Shown: positions 9,324 through 29,959 of the stretch, in pieces
Layout: each line of letters begins with the position of its first letter
Numbering within the stretch: position 1 is the first letter of the stretch
Assembly: GCA_934613415.1 (NCBI GenBank)
Contig: CAKTSY010000001.1
Coordinates: forward strand, 90,001-122,000
Direction of reading: 5' to 3'
DNA from: an uncultured Opitutales bacterium
GTDB taxonomy: Bacteria > Verrucomicrobiota > Verrucomicrobiia > Opitutales > Intestinicryptomonadaceae
Length of the DNA: 32,000 nucleotides
The notes under the pieces: generated by a model
What the model saw: only the letters and a program-made list of their open reading frames with translations
What the model was told of the DNA's origin: nothing
The model's database searches: none
Made by a program: the position numbers and the translations under genes

Positions 9324-9437
9324 CTAAAAAATATTCAAAAATAAAAAATCTTTCGTTCAAGAAAAAAACGCAAACGGTTCAAACAAAGCAAAGCGTGGTT
9401 TTTTGTTGCCTGCAAACAAATATATAACGGCTTTGCT

Positions 9438-18454: not shown

Positions 18455-20701
18455 CTATACCATTAAAATATCGTTTAACACTTTATTATCTATTGTCAAT
18501 CCCATTTTTTCAGAATACAAAGTAGAATCTTTTAAAACGTATATACCGTTAAAATCTGCTATTTGCCCCATCGCCAAAGCGTCTTTAAGTTGAGATTTCC
18601 TAACCGAAACGCAATAGCGGCGAAGCTTGCGAAAGAAACGCGAATCTCCCAAATATCCGTCGCAAATGCGTTTGCACAAATCGGCTCCGTCGCGGTACGG
18701 AACAATAACTTCAGCACAATCGCTAGCGTCTATTAAACGAAAATTTTGGGCAGCCGTTTCAAATTGAAACTCGCCGTTGCAAGCACATTTAACAAGCAAA
18801 TCATAAATTTCTGGCTTATCAAAATTATTACATTTACCAAAAAAACATTCGAAATACTTTGCCACAACTTTGCGCGAATCTAATGCCTCGTTTTTACAAC
18901 AAAGAATAGTTTCGTTAAGTGCTTTCGCTCCACTGTATATAAAACCTAAATTAACCGGTTTTTTTGTTTTAAACACATAAACATTTCCATACTCTTTGCG
19001 CCCTTCGCGGTTGCAGCGACCAGCCGCTTGGATAATGCTGTCTAGCCCGGCATATTCTCTAAACACTTCTGGGAAATCCAAATCTACCCCCGCCTCTACA
19101 AGCTGCGTGGAAACCACACGCGTGCACTTTCCTAAAGCAAGAGATGCTTTGATTTCAGCTAAAACATCATCTATGTGAGCCGTGCACATCGACCGCGAAA
19201 GATGAAATGCGCTTTCGTCGTTTAACTTAGAAAATATTTCGGCAGCATGAGCGCGAGTGTTGCATATGCATAAGAATGAACCTGTGCGCAAATGCAAGTA
19301 ATCGGCAAAATCTGCAAGTTCAAATTCGCCTTCAATTAAATTAAATTTTGTACGCCTAAACGCAGCCTGCAATTCATCGCAATTTTTAATAATCTCTTGC
19401 ACATTTTTTATCGGAGAATCAAAGGCGGTAATGTTAGAACCAATTTTACCCGAAAATACGGGCTGGGTTGCGGTGCAAAACAGCACAGTAGCTCCGCCAA
19501 TTTTTACAAAAGCATCTAACCCCCATAGAATGGGTTTTAAAAAATCGGTAGGCAACATTTGCGCTTCGTCTAAAATTATAACGCTTTTGCAAATATTATG
19601 AAGTTTGCGCGTGCGCGACGACAAATTTGCGTACATAGACTCAAACAACTGTACATTTGTTGTAACAACAATCGGCGCGTCCCAATTTTCAGAGGCTAAG
19701 CGCGCCGCAGTAGGCTGTTCATTTTCGTCGAACAGCTTGTCTGGCTCAACATTAGAATGATGTTCTAAAACATTTTCGTCTCCAAAAATTTTTCTGTATT
19801 GTGCCGCCGTCTGCGAAATTATGCTAGTGTATGGAATTGCTACAATTACGCGCTTCTTGTCGTTTTTAACTGCAAATTTCAAAGCCCATAAAATCTACGC
19901 AAGTGTTTTACCTCCACCGGTGGGAACGCTAAGTGAAAAGTAGCTGCCTGTATAATTTTCTGCAGCATTGGAACATGTTTCATCTATGCCACAGCGCAAA
20001 CGGTTAATAGGCGTATCTGGAGAATTTTCAAAAAGCGTTTTTAAATGCAATTGCAATCGTTCTAGTAAAACTTCCAACGAATCGAACTTGCCTCGCTCCC
20101 TATCTGAATAGAAAAATTTTTCTGTATCTAAATAGTCTGCATCAACAAGAGCCGAAAACATAAGCCTTACAAGCATATTAATTGAAGACTTACTGACATC
20201 TATACCCTTAAAACTTTCTAATGGCGGAATTTTATTTTCTAAAAAGAATTGTTTGGCTCTATTGGCTACTAAATCTAAACATTCTTTTTTTTCAAGACGC
20301 GAATTTTTAACGCTATAATCTTGAAGCCCAGAATGGTGCCCTGCCGAAAGATAGTCTAGAATCGGCATTTTGTTGGTTGCGGCATATATAGCCCCAGCTG
20401 TCGAGTGGTCTACCGAGCCTTTGCGGTTTTTAGGGTCAGCGGACTTCTCGAAAACAGCGGCACGAATATATTTTTGAAAAGCATCAGAAAATTTCCCTAT
20501 ATCGTGAATCAGCCCAGCAGCATAACCCCAATTCTTGCAACCAAAAGATTCTGCAAATTCTGCGGCAAGCAAAGCTACACCCTTTAAATGATCGGGCAAT
20601 AAATGATAATAAGCCTTTTTCTCATCATCACTATCAAGCTTTATGTGCGCCACAAAATCGTTCATATTTCTAAAGCTATAATAATATTTTTTGATTGTCA
20701 A
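18455..20701 (-). pseudogene. cas3: cas3 (HD nuclease + SF2 helicase) interrupted by one in-frame TAG
   Basis: The HD motifs (HLLPDHL, GLIHDIGK) and Walker A (VPTGGGKTLA) end at TAG 19897..19895. The same frame continues ILWALKFAVKNDKKRVIVAIPYTSII... through helicase motifs (DEAQ, CTATQP). There is no frame shift. TAG terminates other genes in this window. Confidence 0.8.
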
Positions 20702-20802
20702 TTACTTTTCAAAAAAAAATGTACAAAACAAAATATTCAAAATTCATATTCACATTTTTACCAACTACTTGCACCGAATTTGTTTGTTTTTTTCAAAAAA
20801 AG

Positions 20803-21066
20803 TCACCTCTTAATTGCCAAGCAACTTGAAAAAAAATATATATCATTGCTTGACAAGATTAAATGAATCCGAAAATTTCTTTTAGATAGATGGAAATTAT
20901 CTAATTGCCCACGGTTTTTTGTGGTGTCATGACAATAATTCCCATTCAAGAAAGCTTCCTTTGTTCCGTGGAAATTTCCCATGCTACTTTGGAAGCTTTC
21001 CCTATCTATTTCTGTGGGATAAATTTTTCGCGGGATACAGCCATTTATTAATATCTTTGCTTGCAT
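20803..21066 (-). CDS. Hypothetical 87-aa ORF between the I-C array and cas3
   Basis: The ATG is preceded by GAAGGAG (3-4 nt spacing). No motif recognised. The 3' third overlaps an AT-rich inverted-repeat element and may be non-coding. Confidence 0.2.
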   Translation of the reverse strand: MQAKILINGCIPRKIYPTEIDRESFQSSMGNFHGTKEAFLNGNYCHDTTKNRGQLDNFHLSKRNFRIHLILSSNDIYFFSSCLAIKR

Positions 21067-21108
21067 TTGCTCCTTCGATTATTTGCCTCCCCTCATAAGA
21101 CAATATTT

Positions 21109-22191
21109 CATGAGATTCACGCGCCAACGAGGGGCGCGACACGGCTCATTCTTGCTGAAATTGCCCTCAATGCGTTTCAATTCACGCGCCCGCGAGGGGC
21201 GCGACGGCTTTGAATGTATCGTATGCCGATTGTGTTACGTTTCAATTCACGCGCCCGCGAGGGGCGCGACTTTGTCTTGGTCTTTTTCGTCCGCTGCAGA
21301 CTTTTGTTTCAATTCACGCGCCCGCGAGGGGCGCTACCAGGGAGACTGGGCTGTTTGCTCGCAACGTTTTGGTTTCAATTCACGCGCCCGCGAGGGGCGC
21401 GACTCTGCGGTTTCATGTAATCAGTTGCGTCCATTTTATGTTTCAATTCACGCGCCCGCGAGGGGCGCGACAATGGTAGCGCAGGGAAAAGGAGCGCGAA
21501 GAGACGTTTCAATTCACGCGCCCGCGAAGGGCGCGACCGACGAGGACGAGTATTTTGCCGACTACGAGCAGGTTTCAATTCACGCGCCCGCGAGGGGCGC
21601 GACGGTATGGCTATATCAATCGGCGGCGTAATGGTGTTTCAATTCACGCGCCCGCGAGGGGCGCGACCTCGTAGTATTCCCTTTCGGGCACCCTTATAGG
21701 GGTTTCAATTCACGCGCCCGCGAGGGGCGCTACCAGATGAGCGTTTTGTGATGTGTGGTTATTGTGGTTTCAATTCACGCGCCCGCGAGGGGCGCGACGC
21801 TATGATAAAGCATTTTAATGACGTATTTGTAGTTTCAATTCACGCGCCCGCGAGGGGCGCGACTGCTTACAAGCCAGATTCCTATAGATAGCACAGTGTT
21901 TCAATTCACGCGCCCGCGAGGGGCGCGACTTGCCATAAAACAAAGAAGAACATTGGCAGAATCAGTTTCAATTCACGCGCCCGCGAGGGGCGCGACATTG
22001 GACTTGGGCGAGGGCAATGTATTGTTGATGTTTCAATTCACGCGCCCGCGAGGGGCGCGACGCACTTGATAGGCTATTAAAGAGAGGAGAAAACGTTTCA
22101 ATTCACGCGCCCGCGAGGGGCGCGACTACATCATCCGCCGATTATTCATTGGCACTCAAGTTTCAATTCACGCGCCCGCGAGGGGCGCGAC
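21109..22191 (-). CRISPR. Type I-C CRISPR array: 17 repeats of 32 bp, 16 spacers of 32-36 bp
   Basis: The repeat in crRNA sense is GTCGCGCCCCTCGCGGGCGCGTGAATTGAAAC, the canonical I-C stem plus ATTGAAAC tail, so transcription is on the minus strand. The leftmost repeat (21109-21140) has 7 mismatches, marking the distal end. Repeats at 21306 and 21702 carry the same G>T variant, and the repeat at 21506 carries a G>A variant. Confidence 0.97.
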
Positions 22192-22300
22192 AGTATATGG
22201 GTTTATCTATCTATTTTTCTGCGTTTGCAACGATTTTTTTGCGAAATACGAAAAATTTTTATTCTCTATATTGTATATTTCACATTTTTCTTCGCAACTT
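22192..22300 (-). promoter_or_regulatory. I-C array leader with a candidate promoter
   Basis: AT-rich sequence abuts the first, intact repeat. On the minus strand, TTGCGA (22297-22292), a 16-nt spacer and TACAAT (22275-22270) lie about 75 nt upstream of the first repeat. Confidence 0.4.
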
Positions 22301-22841
22301 GCTTAATATCAACATGTGCGAAAGCCCTGGCTTTTTTTGCGCGCTTGGGGTTCGCTTACGCAAGTTTGCCCTACTATTCTACCATCGTTTGTAGGTTAGA
22401 TAAAATATATTTGTTTTATGAAAGAAGCTGACGAGCAATGCAAAATGCCTCCTCTTACACGTCCTATAAACGCTTTCAACTTCTCTAAATTCAGTAGAAT
22501 TTATTCCTTTTTATAAATCAAGCGAAAAAAACATTCTTGCTTTTAATATAAATTTTAAAAGTATTTTAAGTTGGTTGGATAGCATAAGCCTGTAGGGTTT
22601 TGACCCAACGCATTTTTTGCCAGCTATTATCCAACCTCACCTTTTATAACATATTTTTGGAGTCTCCTTCTTGGGAAGACCGTCAAGCTTCCATTCAACC
22701 TACTACTTCTAGCAATGGCGGCGACGGTAATATTTCCGCTCGTCAAGAATCAAACTCTGCTTTTAAAGTCGAAAAATCCTACAAAAATATCAAGCAAAAA
22801 ACTTCTTGATTTTTTAAATCTGTTTATAGACGATATGTACC

Positions 22842-22938
22842 GACGATTGAAGCTTTTGAGCGTGGAAATTTTCGCCTGCCTACGGGATGAGTCCGATGAA
22901 GATGTGGCGTTCTTCCAAAAGCTTTAATCGTCTTTTTT
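22842..22938 (+). ncRNA. Structured unit D: 16-bp closing stem plus T6 (candidate sRNA or terminator)
   Basis: GACGATTGAAGCTTTT (22842-22857) pairs with AAAAGCTTTAATCGTC (22917-22932): 15 Watson-Crick pairs and 1 G-U. TTTTTT follows. Confidence 0.3.
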
Positions 22939-23222
22939 GCATATACATATTATTATCTGCAACTTTTAGAGGTTTTTGGTTGACTTTTAGAATTGTTGCC
23001 AGATTCTTACGAACGATTCTCAAAATTAGAGATATTCCCTCGTTTGACTTATGGGAGGTACGCTTGCTGGGAAGAATCGATTGGCAAGATATTAGGTGTA
23101 TACCACTGGTAAGCTATTCGCAGAAATGCGTGGGGCTTGCTTTGTTTTTAATAGAATTGCTTTCTTTTAGTATTACCAATTTTTTGTTGACAGTACTTAT
23201 TCATTTAAAGAGGCTTTTTGCA

Positions 23223-23310
23223 GAATCCGAGAACAGCTCGAAAGAGTCAGGGAATGACGAAGCTCCTTTTTGGACAGGCAGGTTCCCGCCCATCTCGGAT
23301 TCCCTTTTTT
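23223..23310 (+). ncRNA. Structured unit E: 10-bp closing stem plus T6
   Basis: GAATCCGAGA (23223-23232) pairs perfectly with TCTCGGATTC (23293-23302), followed by CCTTTTTT. A GAAA-tetraloop hairpin (GCTCGAAAGAGT) lies inside. Confidence 0.3.
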
Positions 23311-23356
23311 GCATATTTTATTGACAGGCAAAAAACTTATAGCACCCTGCGCATTA

Positions 23357-23430
23357 GAACGGTATTGTTAGTGTCAAACGGGGCTTTATTGCCAACGCGC
23401 GCCTTAAATTGCAACACCGTTCCTTTTTTT
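23357..23430 (+). ncRNA. Structured unit F: 7-bp closing stem plus T7
   Basis: GAACGGT (23357-63) pairs with ACCGTTC (23416-22), followed by CTTTTTTT. The interior contains CGCGCGCCTTAAATTGCAAC. Confidence 0.3.
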
Positions 23431-23488
23431 ATATATGACGTCTATTTGATAATGTAGATTTTGCGCTATTTGTAAAAAGCATTTTCTC

Positions 23489-23589
23489 TTGACTTTTGCG
23501 GCGTTATTTTAACCTTTAATTTAGACACTTGAGAAGCGTTGCCGTTATTCGCTACGGACTTGAACACGTTATCAAGTGTCTCTTTTTTT
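23489..23589 (+). ncRNA. Paralogous structured unit A (candidate small RNA)
   Basis: TTGACTTTTGC box. Outer stem AGACACTTGA/TCAAGTGTCT (10 bp). Inner hairpin CCGT/ACGG. Invariant CTTGAAC (23559-65). Ends CTTTTTTT. Confidence 0.4.
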
Positions 23590-23773
23590 GCACAAATATA
23601 AAAATTTCTTATACCGCAAAATTTTTCTTGATAAAAAAGAATTTATAAAACCTAGTTTATGTGGGCTTTCGCGGGGTTGTGCCAGATTAACAATGCCGTC
23701 TTTTTATATCTAAAATGTTGCATTGCAAACATTTGCATTTTCTTTTATTCTTACAAACCGCCAACAATACGTC

Positions 23774-23873
23774 TTAACTTTTGCAAACCATTTTTCAAGC
23801 ATACACTAAGACGCTTACGATATTGCCCCTTAAGTGGTGGTCTTGAACATATCCTTAAGCGTCTCTTTTGTTT
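23774..23873 (+). ncRNA. Paralogous structured unit B (candidate small RNA)
   Basis: TTAACTTTTGC box. Outer stem AGACGCTTA/TAAGCGTCT (9 bp). Inner hairpin GCCCC-TTAAGT-GGTGGT. CTTGAAC (23842-48). Ends CTTTTGTTT. Confidence 0.4.
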
Positions 23874-23908
23874 ATACAGACAAAAGCCCTACACATAAAA
23901 AATTTTAT

Positions 23909-24009
23909 TTGACTTTTACAAACGGTATTTCGACTATATTGCCCGACGCTTGGGAGGCGCGCCCTTAAGTGGGCGTCTTGAACGCCCCTTCAAGCGTCTC
24001 TTTTGTTTT
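23909..24009 (+). ncRNA. Paralogous structured unit C (candidate small RNA)
   Basis: TTGACTTTTAC box. Outer stem GACGCTTG/CAAGCGTC (8 bp). Inner hairpin GCGCCC-TTAAGT-GGGCGT. CTTGAAC (23977-83). Ends TCTTTTGTTTT. Confidence 0.4.
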
Positions 24010-24056
24010 GTTAAAGTTTTCTGTTTTACATGCAACAGCATCGTTTGTGAATAAAC

Positions 24057-24180
24057 AAAAAAATTGGGCCAAACAAATGTTTGGCCCTTATTTGGTGGAC
24101 ATAAGTCCTTGTTAACGGATATGTATTTTGCAATACAACAGGGTTTTACCCCAGACACCGTTCTTTGATTTCTACAAACT
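24057..24180 (-). ncRNA. Candidate tracrRNA of the II-C system (strand assignment provisional)
   Basis: Positions 24160-24177 are identical to 18 nt of the minus-sense repeat, so they are complementary to the array's plus strand. The minus-strand transcript would read UUUGUAGAAAUCAAAGAACGGUGUC..., then hairpins UGUAUU-GCAA-AAUACA and GGAC-UUAU-GUCC, then a 9-bp GC-rich terminator GGGCCAAAC-AUUU-GUUUGGCCC followed by AAUUUUUUU. Confidence 0.6.
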
Positions 24181-24295
24181 CCCATTAATGAGAGTGTATG
24201 CAACCTTTCACAGAAAAAATATTTTGTCAATATTTTTATTGCATTTATTCTATAAATATTTTATATGTCAAATAAAGTTTAAACAATATAAATAT

Positions 24296-27200
24296 ATGAG
24301 CGATAAGAAAGTTTTAGGTTTTGATATGGGTGCAAATTCGATTGGCTGGTGTATGCAGTTAATAAATAACGAATGTAAAACCGTTGATATACTAGGAATG
24401 GGGACAAGAATTTTCGACAATTCGAGAGACCCTAAAACCAATGTTCCATTATCCGTAAAAAAGCGTATGGTTAATGCGGCGTCCGTACGGCGAAATCGAC
24501 AAATTATGCGCACAAAAAACGTATGCAAAATTCTCAGAAAATTCGGGTTATTACCAAAAGACGAAAAAAGTAGTGTATCCAAACGAAACCCATATAAACT
24601 AAGGGCAAAAGCAGTAAAAGAAAAGATAGATTTATTCGGCATAGGTCGCATTATTTTACATATAAATAAGCGCAGAGGCTTCAAATCTAACCGTAAAATA
24701 GATAAACGCGCCGACGACAAAGAAACCAAAGGGATGAAGGCCGGCATATCTAGACTGCGCGAAATGCTAAAAGATAAAACTCTGGGCGAATTTTTATACG
24801 AGAGAAAAATTGCAGGTAGTTCGGTAAGAATGAGGGCCAATGTAATAAAAAACAAAAATGAATATGAGATATATGCCGAACGCGATATGTACGAAACAGA
24901 ATTGGCAAAAATATGGGAGACACAAAAGAAATTTCACCCTTGCCTAACAGACGACATGTACAGGGAAATATCTAACGCAGTATTTTTCCAACGTCAATTA
25001 AAAGTTCCCGAAAGAGGCTTTTGTCAATTTGAACATACAGAACACCGCGGGTATAAAGCATATCCTATTTTCCAAAAGTTTAGAATTTTGCAGGAGATTA
25101 ATGCACTAGAAATTATTGATATCAATGCAAGCAATGAAAATAAGCTTTCTGTTGAAGAGAAACAAAAACTGGCAAATGCCCTACTTTACAACGACAATAA
25201 ACTTGTTGATAAAAAACAATTTGCAAAATTTTCCAAAATCAAAAAATTTTTAAATATACCCGATACATTTAGTTTTAATTTCGAAAGCGAGAATCGCAAA
25301 GGACTCTATGGCAATTTAACAGATGCTGTTATGGCATCAAACAAATGTTTCGGCGAAAGTTGGCGTAATATAGACGATACAATTAGAGAAAAATTGATAG
25401 ACCTTGTAATGGCTGACAATGAACAAGGATTCATTGCATTGTGTTTTGAACACTTTAAAATAGAAAAAGAAGAGGCAAAAAATATCCTTAATGAATGCTT
25501 TGATTTAACCGACGGAACCGCATCGTTATCTTCATTGGCTATGCATAAAATTGTTCCTTTTTTAGAAAAAGGCGAATTATACCACAATGCTTGTGCCTTA
25601 GCTGGCTATGATTTTAACGTCAATTATAATGGCGAAAAATTCGACGAACTGCCATATTATGGGAAAATTTTAAAAACCGCCGTACTTGGTGGAAATCCAA
25701 ACTTCGATCCCGAGACATTCCCAGAAAAGCACTATGGAAAAATCAATAATCCCACCGTACACGTTGCACTAAATCAGTTACGCAAACTCTACAACAAAAT
25801 TATTTCTGTTTATGGGAAACCAGACAGAATTGTAATTGAAACTGCCAGAGAATTACCTATGGGGCAAGAATCGTTAAAAGGTCTCCTTTCGGAACAAAAA
25901 GAAAATACAAAAAAGAACAAGGAAATTGCCGAAAAATTAAAAGAATTAGGAGAATCCAACACCCCAGAAAACAGAATGAAATATAAGTTGTGGGAAGACC
26001 TAAGCGAGGATATTGCAAAAAGAATTTGTCCGTTTTGTGGAGAAAAGAAAATTGAGGCAAAAAATTTATTTACACCGGAATTTGAAATAGAGCATTTATT
26101 GCCATTTTCCGAAACTTTTGACGATTCGAGGGCAAACAAAGTAATTTCTTGCGCTAGCTGCAATAGAGTTTTTAAAGGACAACGCACACCCTACGAAGCA
26201 TTTGCAAACCGCGAAAAATATAGTTGGGATGGAATCATGGCAAGAGTATCTTTGATGCCAAAGTCAAAACAATGGAGATTCCGCCCAGATGCAATGGAAA
26301 TATTCCGCGAAAAATACGGTGACTTTACTCAACGTATGCTAAACGACACAAGATATATGTCGAAAGTTGCAAGAGAATATTTTACCTCAGTAATTGACGC
26401 GAATAATATTATTACCGTTCCAGGGCAAATTACTGCAATGTTGCGAAAGGAATGGGGGTTAAATGACATATTAAGACCCACTCCTCTAACGGAAAGCAAT
26501 AAGCAAGACAAAACGCTAATGGAAATTGTCAGCGAAACAACAACAGAAAATGATGAGGATGAATCTGACGAAGACAGCGACAAAACGAAAGGCAAAAAGA
26601 AATACCGCGGAGATAATAGACACCATGCAATAGACGCATTTGTAATTTCTTCAGTCAACCGCAACTTAATATCAAAAATTTCAGAAGCATCTAAGATGGC
26701 TGAAAAAGCTGGTTTAAATGATTTGTTAAAACAAATTCCAAAACCATTTTCAACTAACTATATAACTTACGATACTTTTAGAAAAAAAGTTTTATCAATA
26801 GTAGTTTCGCATAAGCTTGATAGAGGTGATGTAAAAACAGCGATAAAAAACCATAAAACTGTTGCGAAATTACACAACGATACAGCATTGGGGAAAATTG
26901 GCAACGAAATTGACGGAAAAATAACAATTGTAAAACGTGTGCCTTTAAATTCCATAGAATGCACAGATAAAGATATATCGGAAATCGCAACGCCAAAAAT
27001 TCGCAATGAACTTTTAAGCATATACGAATCGATATATTCAGATTCAAGCATTAAAGATTTGCCTGAGAAAAAACAAAAAAATGCGATAAAGGATATGTGG
27101 GCAAAAAAGTTAGATGAATACTGCAATGCCAATAAGATTAGACGTGTTAGAATACATATAAAAAACCGTGAAATAAAAAAGCTTGTTCCTATTGCAGACA

Positions 27201-27598
27201 AAAACGGTGTTATCTATAAGTATATGGAAAATGCTGAATCGTATTGTATGGACATATATGATACAGGAAGCGGCAAATGGCAATTTGAGGTTATAAATAT
27301 GTTCGATGCCCATAAAAACAAAATGCCCCAATGGAGAAAAAACAATCCCCACGCAAAACTTATTATGCGTTTGTTTAAACGCGACGCGATTGCCTACGAG
27401 GAAAACGGCGAATATAAAATTGCTATAATTAAGAATGTAGCTACTCACGGACAGATAGGCATTCTTCCGCCAAGCGTTGCAAAAGTTGATGGCAATGTTC
27501 CAAAAAAAATTCCATCTGCCTTACAAGAATTGAACGCTCGCAAAGTTTATATAGATGAAATTGGCCGCGTATTTGACGCTTACAAAAATAAGAAATGA
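24296..27598 (+). CDS. cas9: Cas9, type II-C (1100 aa from MSDKKVLGFDMG)
   Basis: RuvC-I GFDMGANSIGW. RuvC-II IVIETAREL. HNH EIEHLLPFSETFDDSRANKV...NRVFKGQRTPYEAF. RuvC-III NRHHAIDAFV. Arg-rich bridge helix RRNRQIMRTKN. Followed directly by cas1 and cas2, with no csn2 or cas4. Confidence 0.95.
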   Translation: MSDKKVLGFDMGANSIGWCMQLINNECKTVDILGMGTRIFDNSRDPKTNVPLSVKKRMVNAASVRRNRQIMRTKNVCKILRKFGLLPKDEKSSVSKRNPYKLRAKAVKEKIDLFGIGRIILHINKRRGFKSNRKIDKRADDKETKGMKAGISRLREMLKDKTLGEFLYERKIAGSSVRMRANVIKNKNEYEIYAERDMYETELAKIWETQKKFHPCLTDDMYREISNAVFFQRQLKVPERGFCQFEHTEHRGYKAYPIFQKFRILQEINALEIIDINASNENKLSVEEKQKLANALLYNDNKLVDKKQFAKFSKIKKFLNIPDTFSFNFESENRKGLYGNLTDAVMASNKCFGESWRNIDDTIREKLIDLVMADNEQGFIALCFEHFKIEKEEAKNILNECFDLTDGTASLSSLAMHKIVPFLEKGELYHNACALAGYDFNVNYNGEKFDELPYYGKILKTAVLGGNPNFDPETFPEKHYGKINNPTVHVALNQLRKLYNKIISVYGKPDRIVIETARELPMGQESLKGLLSEQKENTKKNKEIAEKLKELGESNTPENRMKYKLWEDLSEDIAKRICPFCGEKKIEAKNLFTPEFEIEHLLPFSETFDDSRANKVISCASCNRVFKGQRTPYEAFANREKYSWDGIMARVSLMPKSKQWRFRPDAMEIFREKYGDFTQRMLNDTRYMSKVAREYFTSVIDANNIITVPGQITAMLRKEWGLNDILRPTPLTESNKQDKTLMEIVSETTTENDEDESDEDSDKTKGKKKYRGDNRHHAIDAFVISSVNRNLISKISEASKMAEKAGLNDLLKQIPKPFSTNYITYDTFRKKVLSIVVSHKLDRGDVKTAIKNHKTVAKLHNDTALGKIGNEIDGKITIVKRVPLNSIECTDKDISEIATPKIRNELLSIYESIYSDSSIKDLPEKKQKNAIKDMWAKKLDEYCNANKIRRVRIHIKNREIKKLVPIADKNGVIYKYMENAESYCMDIYDTGSGKWQFEVINMFDAHKNKMPQWRKNNPHAKLIMRLFKRDAIAYEENGEYKIAIIKNVATHGQIGILPPSVAKVDGNVPKKIPSALQELNARKVYIDEIGRVFDAYKNKK

Positions 27599-28518
27599 AA
27601 GAATGCCAAATAGTTGAAATTGAAAACGATGCTAGATTTATTGGCGTCGAACGCGGTTTTTTAGTTATAAAAAATTTAGGAACAGAAATTGGCCGTATAC
27701 CGCTTGATTCTATTTGTGCCGTAGTTTGCACCGCAAACTATGGCACAGTAAGTACACAAACAATATCTGCTTTGTCGGAATATAATATACCGCTTGTTGT
27801 ATGCAACAAACGTACAAAAACGCCAACTTGCGTGCTAATTCCTTTAGCCTACAATTGGCGTCAAGGCGATATAATGGAGGCGCAAGCTTTTTGCACTCAT
27901 AGCAAAAAGAAACTAGTTTGGAAAACCATTGTAAAAGCAAAACTTTTACAACAATCTCAAGTTTTAAAATATTTAAATAAACCTTTTGAATTAATTAAAA
28001 ACTTATCTGATATGGTTAAAGCAGGCGACCCCGAAAATATTGAAGGCAGAGGTGCAAACGCATATTGGAAAATATTGATGGGACAATCTTTTAGGCGCAA
28101 TAGGGACGACGAAAACGAAAATATATTATTTAATTATGGTTATACAATTTTACGAGCGGCAACAATAAGAGCAATTTGTGCTGCCGGTTTAAACCCAAGC
28201 ATTGGGGTACACCACTGCTCTTCTACAAACCAAGCCAGACTAGCAGACGATTTAATGGAATCGTTTAGACCTTTTGTAGACATAAAAGTTTTTGAAATTT
28301 GCCAAGACGGCGACTCGGAACTTAACAAAGAAAATAAGAAAAAATTAAGTTCGGTTTTAACGGATAGGTATTTTAGAAAAGAAAAAATAACGAGCGTTCA
28401 ACAAATGCTGTACGACACCGCTATAGATTTTGCAAAGTTTTGCTCAAACGAAATAACAGAATTTAAAATCGATATAGTAAAAAGCAAAAACCTATGCAAT
28501 ACGAACAATGGAACTTAG
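27595..28518 (+). CDS. cas1: Cas1 (type II module)
   Basis: 307 aa. The ATG overlaps the cas9 stop (ATGA). Motifs NILFNYGYTILRAATIRAI and GVHHCSSTNQARLADDLMESFRP. Confidence 0.9.
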   Translation: MKECQIVEIENDARFIGVERGFLVIKNLGTEIGRIPLDSICAVVCTANYGTVSTQTISALSEYNIPLVVCNKRTKTPTCVLIPLAYNWRQGDIMEAQAFCTHSKKKLVWKTIVKAKLLQQSQVLKYLNKPFELIKNLSDMVKAGDPENIEGRGANAYWKILMGQSFRRNRDDENENILFNYGYTILRAATIRAICAAGLNPSIGVHHCSSTNQARLADDLMESFRPFVDIKVFEICQDGDSELNKENKKKLSSVLTDRYFRKEKITSVQQMLYDTAIDFAKFCSNEITEFKIDIVKSKNLCNTNNGT

Positions 28519-28837
28519 TGGTTATAAACTTATGTGGATGATGGTTATGTTTGATTTACCGACGGCTACAACCCAAGAACGCAAACAGTACTCGGATTTC
28601 AGAAATATGCTATTGGATAATGGGTTTAGTATGTCCCAATACTCGGTATATTTTAGATTTTGCGGAGAAAGAGAATGTTGCGCAAAATATGTCAGAAAAA
28701 TAAAGATGTCGGCTCCGCCAGAAGGAGATATTTCAATATTGTTTTTTACGGATAAACAATTTGGACAAATTATAAACATAATAAAAAGAAAATTTGTTAG
28801 ACCTAAGAATACACCCGAACAATTACAACTTTTTTAA
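28508..28837 (+). CDS. cas2: Cas2 (type II module)
   Basis: 109 aa. LMWMMVMFDLPT...FRNMLLDNGFSMSQYSVYFRFC is typical of type II Cas2. Overlaps the cas1 end. Confidence 0.85.
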   Translation: MELSGYKLMWMMVMFDLPTATTQERKQYSDFRNMLLDNGFSMSQYSVYFRFCGERECCAKYVRKIKMSAPPEGDISILFFTDKQFGQIINIIKRKFVRPKNTPEQLQLF

Positions 28838-28848
28838 AGCATAAAAAA

Positions 28849-28885
28849 ACTCCCATAATCTTCAAAAAAATGGGAGTTTTTATTT
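28849..28885 (+). terminator. Terminator after the II-C cas operon
   Basis: Stem ACTCCCA (28849-55) / TGGGAGT (28871-77) followed by TTTTTATTT. Confidence 0.6.
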
Positions 28886-28934
28886 CATGTAATAGCACAT
28901 AACTCGGTAAAACACACATAGTTATAAATGCTAA

Positions 28935-29959
28935 ATTGTAGAAATCAAAGAACTGTAGTCAATCCGCAACAAATATTATGAAATACTATATTGTAAAAAA
29001 ATTGTAGAAATCAAAGAACTGTAGTCAATCCGCAACACCTTGGGTGCTCAATTCGAAAACCCAATTATTGTAGAAATCAAAGAACTGTAGTCAATCCGCA
29101 ACCGACAAGCACAATTACAAAGGGCAAATGGAATTGTAGAAATCAAAGAACTGTAGTCAATCCGCAACGATATTTCTTTTTTGTTATCGGCTACTTTGAT
29201 TGTAGAAATCAAAGAACTGTAGTCAATCCGCAACCAACATAACCCGTTCGACATTGATACTGTCATTGTAGAAATCAAAGAACTGTAGTCAATCCGCAAC
29301 TGAAAAAATGAACACAAATTTAGATATAAATTGTAGAAATCAAAGAACTGTAGTCAATCCGCAACAACAGGCAGTTTTCGTTTACCGCCTGCGAGATTGT
29401 AGAAATCAAAGAACTGTAGTCAATCCGCAACGTTATCGAGGACTATGACAAGCAACAAATTATTGTAGAAATCAAAGAACTGTAGTCAATCCGCAACGTT
29501 ATCGAGGACTATGACAAGCAACAAATTATTGTAGAAATCAAAGAACTGTAGTCAATCCGCAACCAAGTATAAATTTTATTCGCTGTGGCAGCGATTGTAG
29601 AAATCAAAGAACTGTAGTCAATCCGCAACCTATGTACAGAACACCCGTCCGGGAGATACATTGTAGAAATCAAAGAACTGTAGTCAATCCGCAACGAACG
29701 TGCACTACATAAAGCAACAAAACAGATTGTAGAAATCAAAGAACTGTAGTCAATCCGCAACCGAAGAACCTAAGGTTGAATTTTTGTCGCAATTGTAGAA
29801 ATCAAAGAACTGTAGTCAATCCGCAACTTATAAGCTTGTTGACGTTGTTTTAGTATTATTGTAGAAATCAAAGAACTGTAGTCAATCCGCAACTCATTTT
29901 TTGCTTGACGCCCCTTTTTAAAAATTGTAGAAATCAAAGAACTGTAGTAATTTCAGAAA
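28935..29959 (-). CRISPR. Type II-C CRISPR array: 16 repeats of 36 bp (last one degenerate), 15 spacers of 29-30 bp
   Basis: Plus-strand repeat ATTGTAGAAATCAAAGAACTGTAGTCAATCCGCAAC. Minus-sense repeat GTTGCGGATTGACTACAGTTCTTTGATTTCTACAAT. The repeat at 29924-29959 keeps only the first 25 nt in plus sense. Spacers 8 and 9 are identical. The minus orientation is preferred (TTGACT-N16-TACAAT in every repeat; ends in TACAAT like Neisseria II-C repeats) but is not proven. Confidence 0.95.

Follow-up and report, generated by a model that had tools for sequence, protein, structure and literature searches.

What are three similar, hairpin-forming repeats doing between two CRISPR-Cas systems, and do they belong to either of them? 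This question is raised by a 32,000-nt stretch of DNA from an uncultured Opitutales bacterium (hereafter the window), in which a type I-C system on the minus strand and a type II-C system on the plus strand lie on either side of three repeats, units A, B and C. The units are sited in the 2.1-kb gene-poor interval that separates I-C from II-C (Table 1), and unit C is the final one ahead of the II-C cassette, about 290 nt upstream of cas9 and on the same strand. The habitat of the source bacterium is the human gut, and an identical Cas9 is present on Hadza gut metagenome contigs.

Table 1. Positions of the units, the neighbouring modules and the CRISPR-Cas loci in the window
Feature	Position	Strand	Details
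Type I-C operon		minus	split cas3 (HD + helicase genes), cas8c/Csd1, cas1; assigned with Pfam
Type I-C array	~21100-22191		
Module 1	22806-22938	plus	TTGATT 22806-22811, 30 nt, closing stem, T-run; sequence unrelated to A-C
Module 1, closing stem	22842-22932	plus	14-17 bp; fold -29.1 kcal/mol, z -2.3
Module 2	23187-23312	plus	TTGACA 23187-23192, 30 nt, closing stem, T-run; sequence unrelated to A-C
Module 2, closing stem	23223-23302	plus	10 bp, GAATCCGAGA/TCTCGGATTC
Module 3	23321-23430	plus	TTGACA 23321-23326, 30 nt, closing stem, T-run; sequence unrelated to A-C
Module 3, closing stem	from 23357	plus	GAACGGT/ACCGTTC
Unit A	23489-23589	plus	alignment, fold, covariance-model match 76.2 bits
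Unit A, 5′ box	23489-23499	plus	TTGACTTTTGC
Unit A, -10-like hexamer	23515-23520	plus	TTTAAT
Unit A, outer stem P1	23523-23532 / 23572-23581	plus	AGACACTTGA / TCAAGTGTCT
Unit A, core	23559-23565	plus	CTTGAAC
Unit A, T-run	23582-23589	plus	
Unit B	23774-23873	plus	alignment, fold, covariance-model match 86.2 bits
Unit B, 5′ box	23774-23784	plus	TTAACTTTTGC (strain L111: TTGACTTTTGC)
Unit B, -10-like hexamer	23802-23807	plus	TACACT
Unit B, outer stem P1	23809-23817 / 23856-23864	plus	AGACGCTTA / TAAGCGTCT
Unit B, core	23842-23848	plus	CTTGAAC
Unit B, T-run	23865-23873	plus	
Unit C	23909-24009	plus	alignment, fold, covariance-model match 77.8 bits
Unit C, 5′ box	23909-23919	plus	TTGACTTTTAC
Unit C, -10-like hexamer	23935-23940	plus	TATATT (strain L113: TATAAT)
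Unit C, outer stem P1	23945-23952 / 23991-23998	plus	GACGCTTG / CAAGCGTC
Unit C, core	23977-23983	plus	CTTGAAC
Unit C, T-run	23999-24009	plus	
Type II-C tracrRNA	~24055-24186	minus	anti-repeat TTTGTAGAAATCAAAGAAC, four helices, terminator
Type II-C locus	cas9 24296-27598; array 28934-29959	plus	cas9, cas1, cas2, array

In a preliminary description of the window, A, B and C had been presented as plus-strand paralogues that align end to end, and the alignment bore this out. A 30-nt pattern of the 3′ part, searched with up to three mismatches, matched the sites of A, B and C alone in the window, with 0 matches expected from shuffles. Conservation across the units falls in blocks and is mosaic-like. 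Invariant alignment columns account for 9 of 11 positions in the 5′ box, 6 of 9 in the 5′ arm of P1, 8 of 9 in GNCTTGAAC, 8 of 10 in the 3′ arm of P1 and 7 of 9 in the T tail; the corresponding counts are 7/24 for the spacer from box to stem, 7/25 for the inner region, 0/6 for the junction after the core and 3/22 for the flanks. The core heptamer CTTGAAC had been called invariant but varies between strains, since strain L111 has CTTAAAC in its unit A, and unit B of strain L012 has lost the heptamer by deletion together with the inner part. The T-rich 3′ end ascribed to every unit is present as a T-run directly 3′ of each stem, the tails after P1 being CTTTTTTT, CTTTTGTTT and TCTTTTGTTTT in the terminators of A, B and C, respectively. 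The units accordingly carry the G+C-containing stem followed by a U-run that characterizes intrinsic terminators, with 8-10 bp and 4-5 G:C pairs in P1; the region enclosed by P1, at ~40 nt, is unusually long for such an element.

Folded at full length, each unit is one long hairpin, with energies of -21.5 kcal/mol for A (z -3.3), -18.5 kcal/mol for B (z -3.3) and -30.5 kcal/mol for C (z -3.4). Stem pairing was counted over seven copies from four strain variants, aligned to the covariance model. The 9-bp outer stem P1 pairs in every intact copy (95.9-98% of cells paired), and the paired cells drop to 21-52% in a control with slid partners. A compensatory change in this stem, reported in the preliminary description, was found again: two pairs (columns 7/57 and 11/53) have exchanged both partners, from G:C to A:U, one in the A lineage and one in the B lineage. 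These are two evolutionary events and suggestive, minimal covariation support for a paired outer stem. The inner hairpin had been said to keep its pairing, yet the inner 38-39 nt fold at shuffle level in three of the four variants (z +0.27 for A, -0.16 for B and +0.75 for the C-variant of L113), and window C alone stands out (-2.4). P2 occupies other alignment columns in A than in C, so that the two helices are analogous, not covarying. Three G/A changes separate the RNA part of window C from that of the C unit in L113; each affects a position that is paired in the window-C fold, and none is compensated. The supported structure is the outer stem plus the U-run only. Of the earlier proposal of selection on RNA rather than protein, the non-coding nature of the units and the compensatory change in the outer stem are supported; covariation of the inner hairpin is not. 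CUUGAAC is predicted to be mostly unpaired in window A, B and C (unpaired probability 0.72-1.0, one C base 0.35), and it is predicted to be paired in the L113 variant, where the unpaired probability of most bases is ~0.2-0.3.

The -35-like hexamer TTGACT/TTAACT ends 28 nt (A), 29 nt (B) and 30 nt (C) before the base of P1, a distance that fits a -35 box if transcription starts at the base of the stem. This layout recurs in the three neighbouring modules, so that a TT[GA]A[CT]N hexamer stands 28-30 nt ahead of a closing stem in 6/6 modules; in all, six plus-strand elements consisting of a long stem and a T-run are found inside 1.16 kb. The chance of the 6/6 geometry was calculated at ~5e-12, which is a post-hoc estimate, as the test was defined after the data had been seen. 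Because three neighbours of unrelated sequence have the identical layout, the segment 22806-24009 was regarded as a cluster that comprises at least six putative mini-genes, each with promoter, hairpin and terminator. Module 2 is missing in strains L012 and L113. An extra TTGACTTTTAG box was seen at 22980, followed by a longer, less clear module ending in GGGGCTTGCTTTGTTTTT near 23150.

At 16-17 nt from the -35 hexamer the units have minimal xAxxxT hexamers only; the better -10-like hexamers (TTTAAT, TACACT, TATATT; TATAAT in L113) are located at 20-22 nt, and a consensus promoter scan with 16-18-nt spacers returned 0 promoters for any of units A, B and C. That the -10-like hexamer of unit C reaches the consensus TATAAT in L113 supports the presence of unit promoters. 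A tRNA gene in the window has TTGACA-N17-TTTTAT, and every 36-nt II-C repeat contains, on the minus strand and in crRNA sense (GTTGCGGATTGACTACAGTTCTTTGATTTCTACAAT), TTGACT-N16-TACAAT. These boxes with their 16-17-nt spacers indicate that the organism uses promoters of this kind. For the II-C repeats they suggest repeat-internal promoters, from which each crRNA would start in the adjacent spacer; such promoters have been reported for the II-C systems of Neisseria and Campylobacter.

Searches for known families agreed with the statement that the family was not recognised. No match at gathering scores was obtained for the units with Rfam 15, these scores being passed in the window by two tRNAs only. 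At E values up to 10 nothing credible appeared either, the overlaps with unit C scoring 17.5-26.7 bits where 40-90 are required for gathering (MicC, 26.7/90), and ARAGORN detected no tRNA-like gene. Elsewhere in the 32-kb window, no unit was found with the 3′ pattern or the covariance model. With the strict 3′ pattern, a single true locus came out of 185,579 species genomes and a single one out of the JGI metagenomes; these are L012 and L113, both of the same lineage and at the same locus. The further candidates L013, L112 and L114-L118 were rejected as chance matches, L117 resembling coding sequence. Three scans of IMG/VR gave 97 matches to the loose pattern, which were noise according to the covariance model, and 0 to the strict patterns, and no phage or plasmid sequence was matched by 22200-24290 in blastn. 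A dispersed repeat of REP/MITE type had been named beforehand as the finding that would count against a structured RNA family; the true copies lie at one locus in one lineage, as judged with the strict pattern and a fragmented species-representative MAG. The nearest homologues of flanking genes outside the lineage (GH99-like, 54% identity; Cas3-HD, 65-71%) are on contigs too short to compare the locus. With flanking-gene homologues 54-71% identical or on very short contigs, the lineage is, by sequence comparison, isolated.

The repeats are a genuine family, restricted to one lineage, and probably represent small-RNA genes. The reading preferred here, to which a probability of roughly 0.45 is assigned, is that A, B and C are lineage-specific, self-contained sibling small-RNA genes whose RNAs would be closed hairpins with a loop as candidate functional site. 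Transcription would begin at the 5′ arm of P1 or a few bases from it, driven by a sigma-70-type promoter that consists of TTGACT/TTAACT and a -10 of weak sequence or unusual spacing. The predicted RNA has ~62-67 nt and forms one long imperfect hairpin closed by P1, the 3′ arm of which, together with the U-run, would serve as intrinsic terminator. The 3′ internal loop (G)UCUUGAAC is the sole conserved sequence predicted to be unpaired and would be the likely working surface, either as a protein contact or as seed for a target RNA that contains GUUCAAG(AC). The sibling copies may have arisen through local duplication and recombination. The cluster around them varies between strains, counts no fewer than six such mini-genes and has the type I-C leader on one side and a GH99-like gene on the other. 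The II-C cassette would have been inserted into this cluster, or lost from it, in some strains, and the proximity of the units to cas9 would reflect a shared locus, not a demonstrated function. Block conservation, P1 compensation, the fold z-scores, the unpaired loop, the 6/6 geometry and the gain or loss of whole units argue for small-RNA genes; the absence of a consensus promoter, the chance-level inner fold, the variable core, dispensability and the want of a consistent target duplex argue against them. The inner covariation, the invariance and the switch behaviour claimed in the preliminary description were overstated.

Gain and loss became apparent from the comparison of strains. The window has units A, B and C and the II-C system, which is absent from the other three variants: L111 has A and B intact and C missing, L113 has a single C-type unit, and L012 has an A with degenerate box and 5′ arm as well as a B in which a deletion of 29 nt has left a simple hairpin. 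Between strains, intact units come and go as wholes, and L113 is without the window sequence from ~22830 to 23905. The presence of the II-C cassette (tracrRNA, cas9, cas1, cas2 and array; window 24012-29955) also varies by strain, as determined by comparison with L111 3517-3600, L113 905-965 and L012 915-975. In the strains without II-C, ~25 nt (catctggcaaaaaatRtagggc) extend from the last unit to the terminator of the convergent GH99-like gene, and this stretch is replaced in the window by the cassette. The number of units therefore changes between strains, and the units are independent of cas9. In all strains with the Cas9 or Cas3-HD protein of the window the units are identical. Window and L111 differ by ~14 substitutions over ~1.6 kb (~0.9%); three of these lie inside units, so that no purifying selection is measurable, and the units are dispensable, since L012 has degenerate copies only. 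A block of ~110 nt past the I-C leader (~22420-22532; L012 200-305, L113 405-515) is near-invariant in all four strain variants, in surroundings that are indel-rich.

The same variation could be read as decay. The units would then be duplicates without function in trans, promoter-plus-terminator segments that recombination has copied and reshuffled within a hypervariable stretch between genes, and their conserved blocks would reflect the needs of any promoter or terminator, or gene conversion among the copies. The drop from three to zero intact copies among near-identical strains, deletion junctions of microhomology type, the degenerate copies in L012, the inner folds at chance level, the uncompensated changes between the two C units and a conservation of units not above that of the flanks are all consistent with it. 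Such decay would nevertheless not explain why GNCTTGAAC, needless for promoter or terminator, is conserved at 8/9 columns next to a junction with 0/6, why the 11-nt box is conserved far past the -35 hexamer, or why one precise geometry is common to six modules. This reading, the main rival of the small-RNA genes, is unlikely, though it has to be taken seriously.

A second alternative, distinctly improbable, is a terminator/antiterminator switch in cis, in which CUUGAA would compete with the 5′ arm for (U)UCAAG of the 3′ arm and thereby tune read-through; behind unit C, read-through would traverse the tracrRNA in antisense into cas9. In each of the three units the 3′ arm offers a pairing partner for CUUGA (B using one G·U pair), and the position and orientation of unit C relative to cas9 would suit such a role. 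The mutually exclusive fold described previously, however, reaches only -0.7 to -4.2 kcal/mol in the local 3′ part, the full fold closed by P1 having -18.5 to -30.5 kcal/mol, and in A and C the local 3′ optimum differs from the CUUGAA:UUCAAG pairing. Behind A and B there are only further modules, the last unit of L111 and L113 faces the terminator of a convergent gene with no cas9, and no conserved structure resembling a ligand pocket was seen. Riboswitches and attenuators combine competing folds of comparable stability with a downstream gene on the same strand; comparable folds were not found in the units, nor such a gene in L111 and L113. The switch or attenuator originally proposed is not sustained by these results.

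Considerably more speculative is the idea that the 1.2-kb run of at least six mini-genes might be a new defence-associated RNA cluster, in which the loop (G)UCUUGAAC of A, B and C would bind or regulate a Cas component or phage factor and the units would act as recombination sites of the II-C cassette; this has to be considered a long shot.

Still less credence is given to a CRISPR-linked role, in which the unit RNA would load into Cascade or Cas9, or titrate them, as a guide-like or decoy RNA (a crRNA-like regulator of the CreA/CreR mini-array type, an anti-CRISPR repeat mimic or a partner of the tracrRNA). Besides the location of the units between the I-C array and the II-C locus, two faint likenesses of unit C speak for it: inner hairpin plus CTTGAAC resemble the I-C repeat (p ~0.07), and the 5′ box is similar, in sense orientation, to the II-C repeat in its 3′ half (p ~0.02, uncorrected). 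Both are specific to C and do not survive correction over 12 tests, and the best ungapped match of the units to the I-C repeat, 17/32, is inside the null (mean 16.4, 95th percentile 18). CRISPR repeat-like RNAs (crlRNAs, CreA, CreR) are defined by a sequence similar to the CRISPR repeat of their own locus, for which PMC10120712 took a BLASTN match of at least 16 bp. The only repeat-like match of at least 11 bp by BLASTN in 22195-24295 was the anti-repeat of the tracrRNA; the units show no significant repeat likeness and therefore fall outside the repeat-like regulatory RNAs as defined there (PMC10120712). They also lack what marks RNA anti-CRISPRs (Racr, solitary repeat mimics carried by a phage, plasmid or prophage), with no repeat likeness, no match in phages or plasmids and no true copies in IMG/VR, as well as the anti-repeat and the conservation beside cas9 that mark a tracrRNA. 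A further mark of crlRNAs is a pseudo-spacer with partial complementarity to a cas or toxin promoter, beside a PAM. A look-up of pseudo-spacers, a weak test because no handle defines the pseudo-spacer, showed that the units share only chance 8-13-mers with the spacers and the rest of the window. Predicted duplexes of the units with the tracrRNA, the crRNA repeats, the cas9 and cas3 leaders and the I-C leader were not consistently above shuffles, the best being B with the tracrRNA (p ~0.017 among 18 tests), and GUUCAAG occurs in the window as often as expected by chance, at 9355 and 14153.

The units persist in strains without II-C and are missing at related II-C loci: the three-unit covariance model found 0 units at the Cas9-relative loci L007-L011, with the tracrRNA present in L007 and L008, the two checked for it. 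Together with the lack of repeat-like sequence, this argues against a functional tie to cas genes, and the guide-like or decoy reading is already largely refuted at the sequence level. The tracrRNA itself has an anti-repeat with an 18-bp perfect match to the II-C repeat (24160-24177) and a terminator of GGGCCAAAC/GTTTGGCCC plus T-run, and it is kept upstream of cas9 in L007 and L008 (Cas9 identity 60-63%) with 10 compensatory pairs. About 45 nt with two hairpins appear to interrupt its anti-repeat.

Some further observations concern the two CRISPR-Cas loci. The I-C cas3 is split in two (HD 19895-20665, helicase 18455-19882, within 18455-22191 of the window on the minus strand), and the I-C array is placed upstream of cas3, not behind cas2, with a degenerate terminal repeat near 21110-21140. 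In the II-C array, neighbouring spacers at 29432-29461 and 29498-29527 are identical (gttatcgaggactatgacaagcaacaaatt), and the array terminates in a truncated repeat at ~29926-29948.

Small peptides, suggested by one frame (..GLEH(V/I)(I/L)K(C/R)LF..) that is open through core and tail in all three units, were rejected as scarcely conceivable: no small conserved ORF, conserved start codon, ATG or ribosome-binding site was found in the units, the start in A and C would be a TTG within the stem that is TTA in B, the frame passes through the T-run of the terminator, and the compensatory stem changes indicate pairing of RNA or DNA.

If expressed, the units would rank with the earliest candidates for small regulatory RNAs to be described in the gut Opitutales, which are uncultured Verrucomicrobiota, and they would exemplify sibling small RNAs with strain-variable number. 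Their place in a strain-variable cluster with no detectable CRISPR link makes them a modest, lineage-restricted curiosity. The negative result outweighs the positive one: a striking structured repeat beside cas9 has no link to CRISPR by sequence or by comparison, and the genuine II-C accessory RNA is the tracrRNA, just downstream on the opposite strand. This cautions against labelling all hairpins near cas genes as CRISPR-related.

Among known systems, CRISPR repeat-like regulatory RNAs (CreA/CreR, crlRNAs; PMC10120712) and RNA anti-CRISPRs (PMC10651486) are, like the units, small, non-coding, equipped with a terminator and a promoter (putative in the units) and intergenic beside cas genes. 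The units differ from them in having no repeat-like sequence and no pseudo-spacer match in the weak look-up over the window, in not being located on mobile elements and in being independent of II-C. With the II-C tracrRNA they share small size, structure, a terminator and the intergenic region, whereas the 18-bp anti-repeat and the conservation with compensatory pairs in Cas9 relatives belong to the tracrRNA and not to the units. Like REP/MITE elements, they are ~100-bp units with a 9-10-bp inverted repeat and several copies, but they occur at one locus only, with no terminal repeats or target-site duplications evident. Qrr1-5, LhrC1-5, the streptococcal csRNAs and OmrA/B are sibling trans-acting sRNAs with their own promoters and intrinsic terminators. 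The units have no sequence or Rfam relationship to these sRNAs and no known regulator, chaperone or target; moreover, the whole unit RNA would be closed into a single hairpin, and its candidate seed would lie in an internal loop instead of a 5′ tail or apical loop. In common with these siblings, the units are tandem paralogues, each with a terminator hairpin plus U-tail and a conserved box that would belong to a promoter, in which a short conserved stretch is predicted to be single-stranded, the rest is variable and the copy number depends on the strain.
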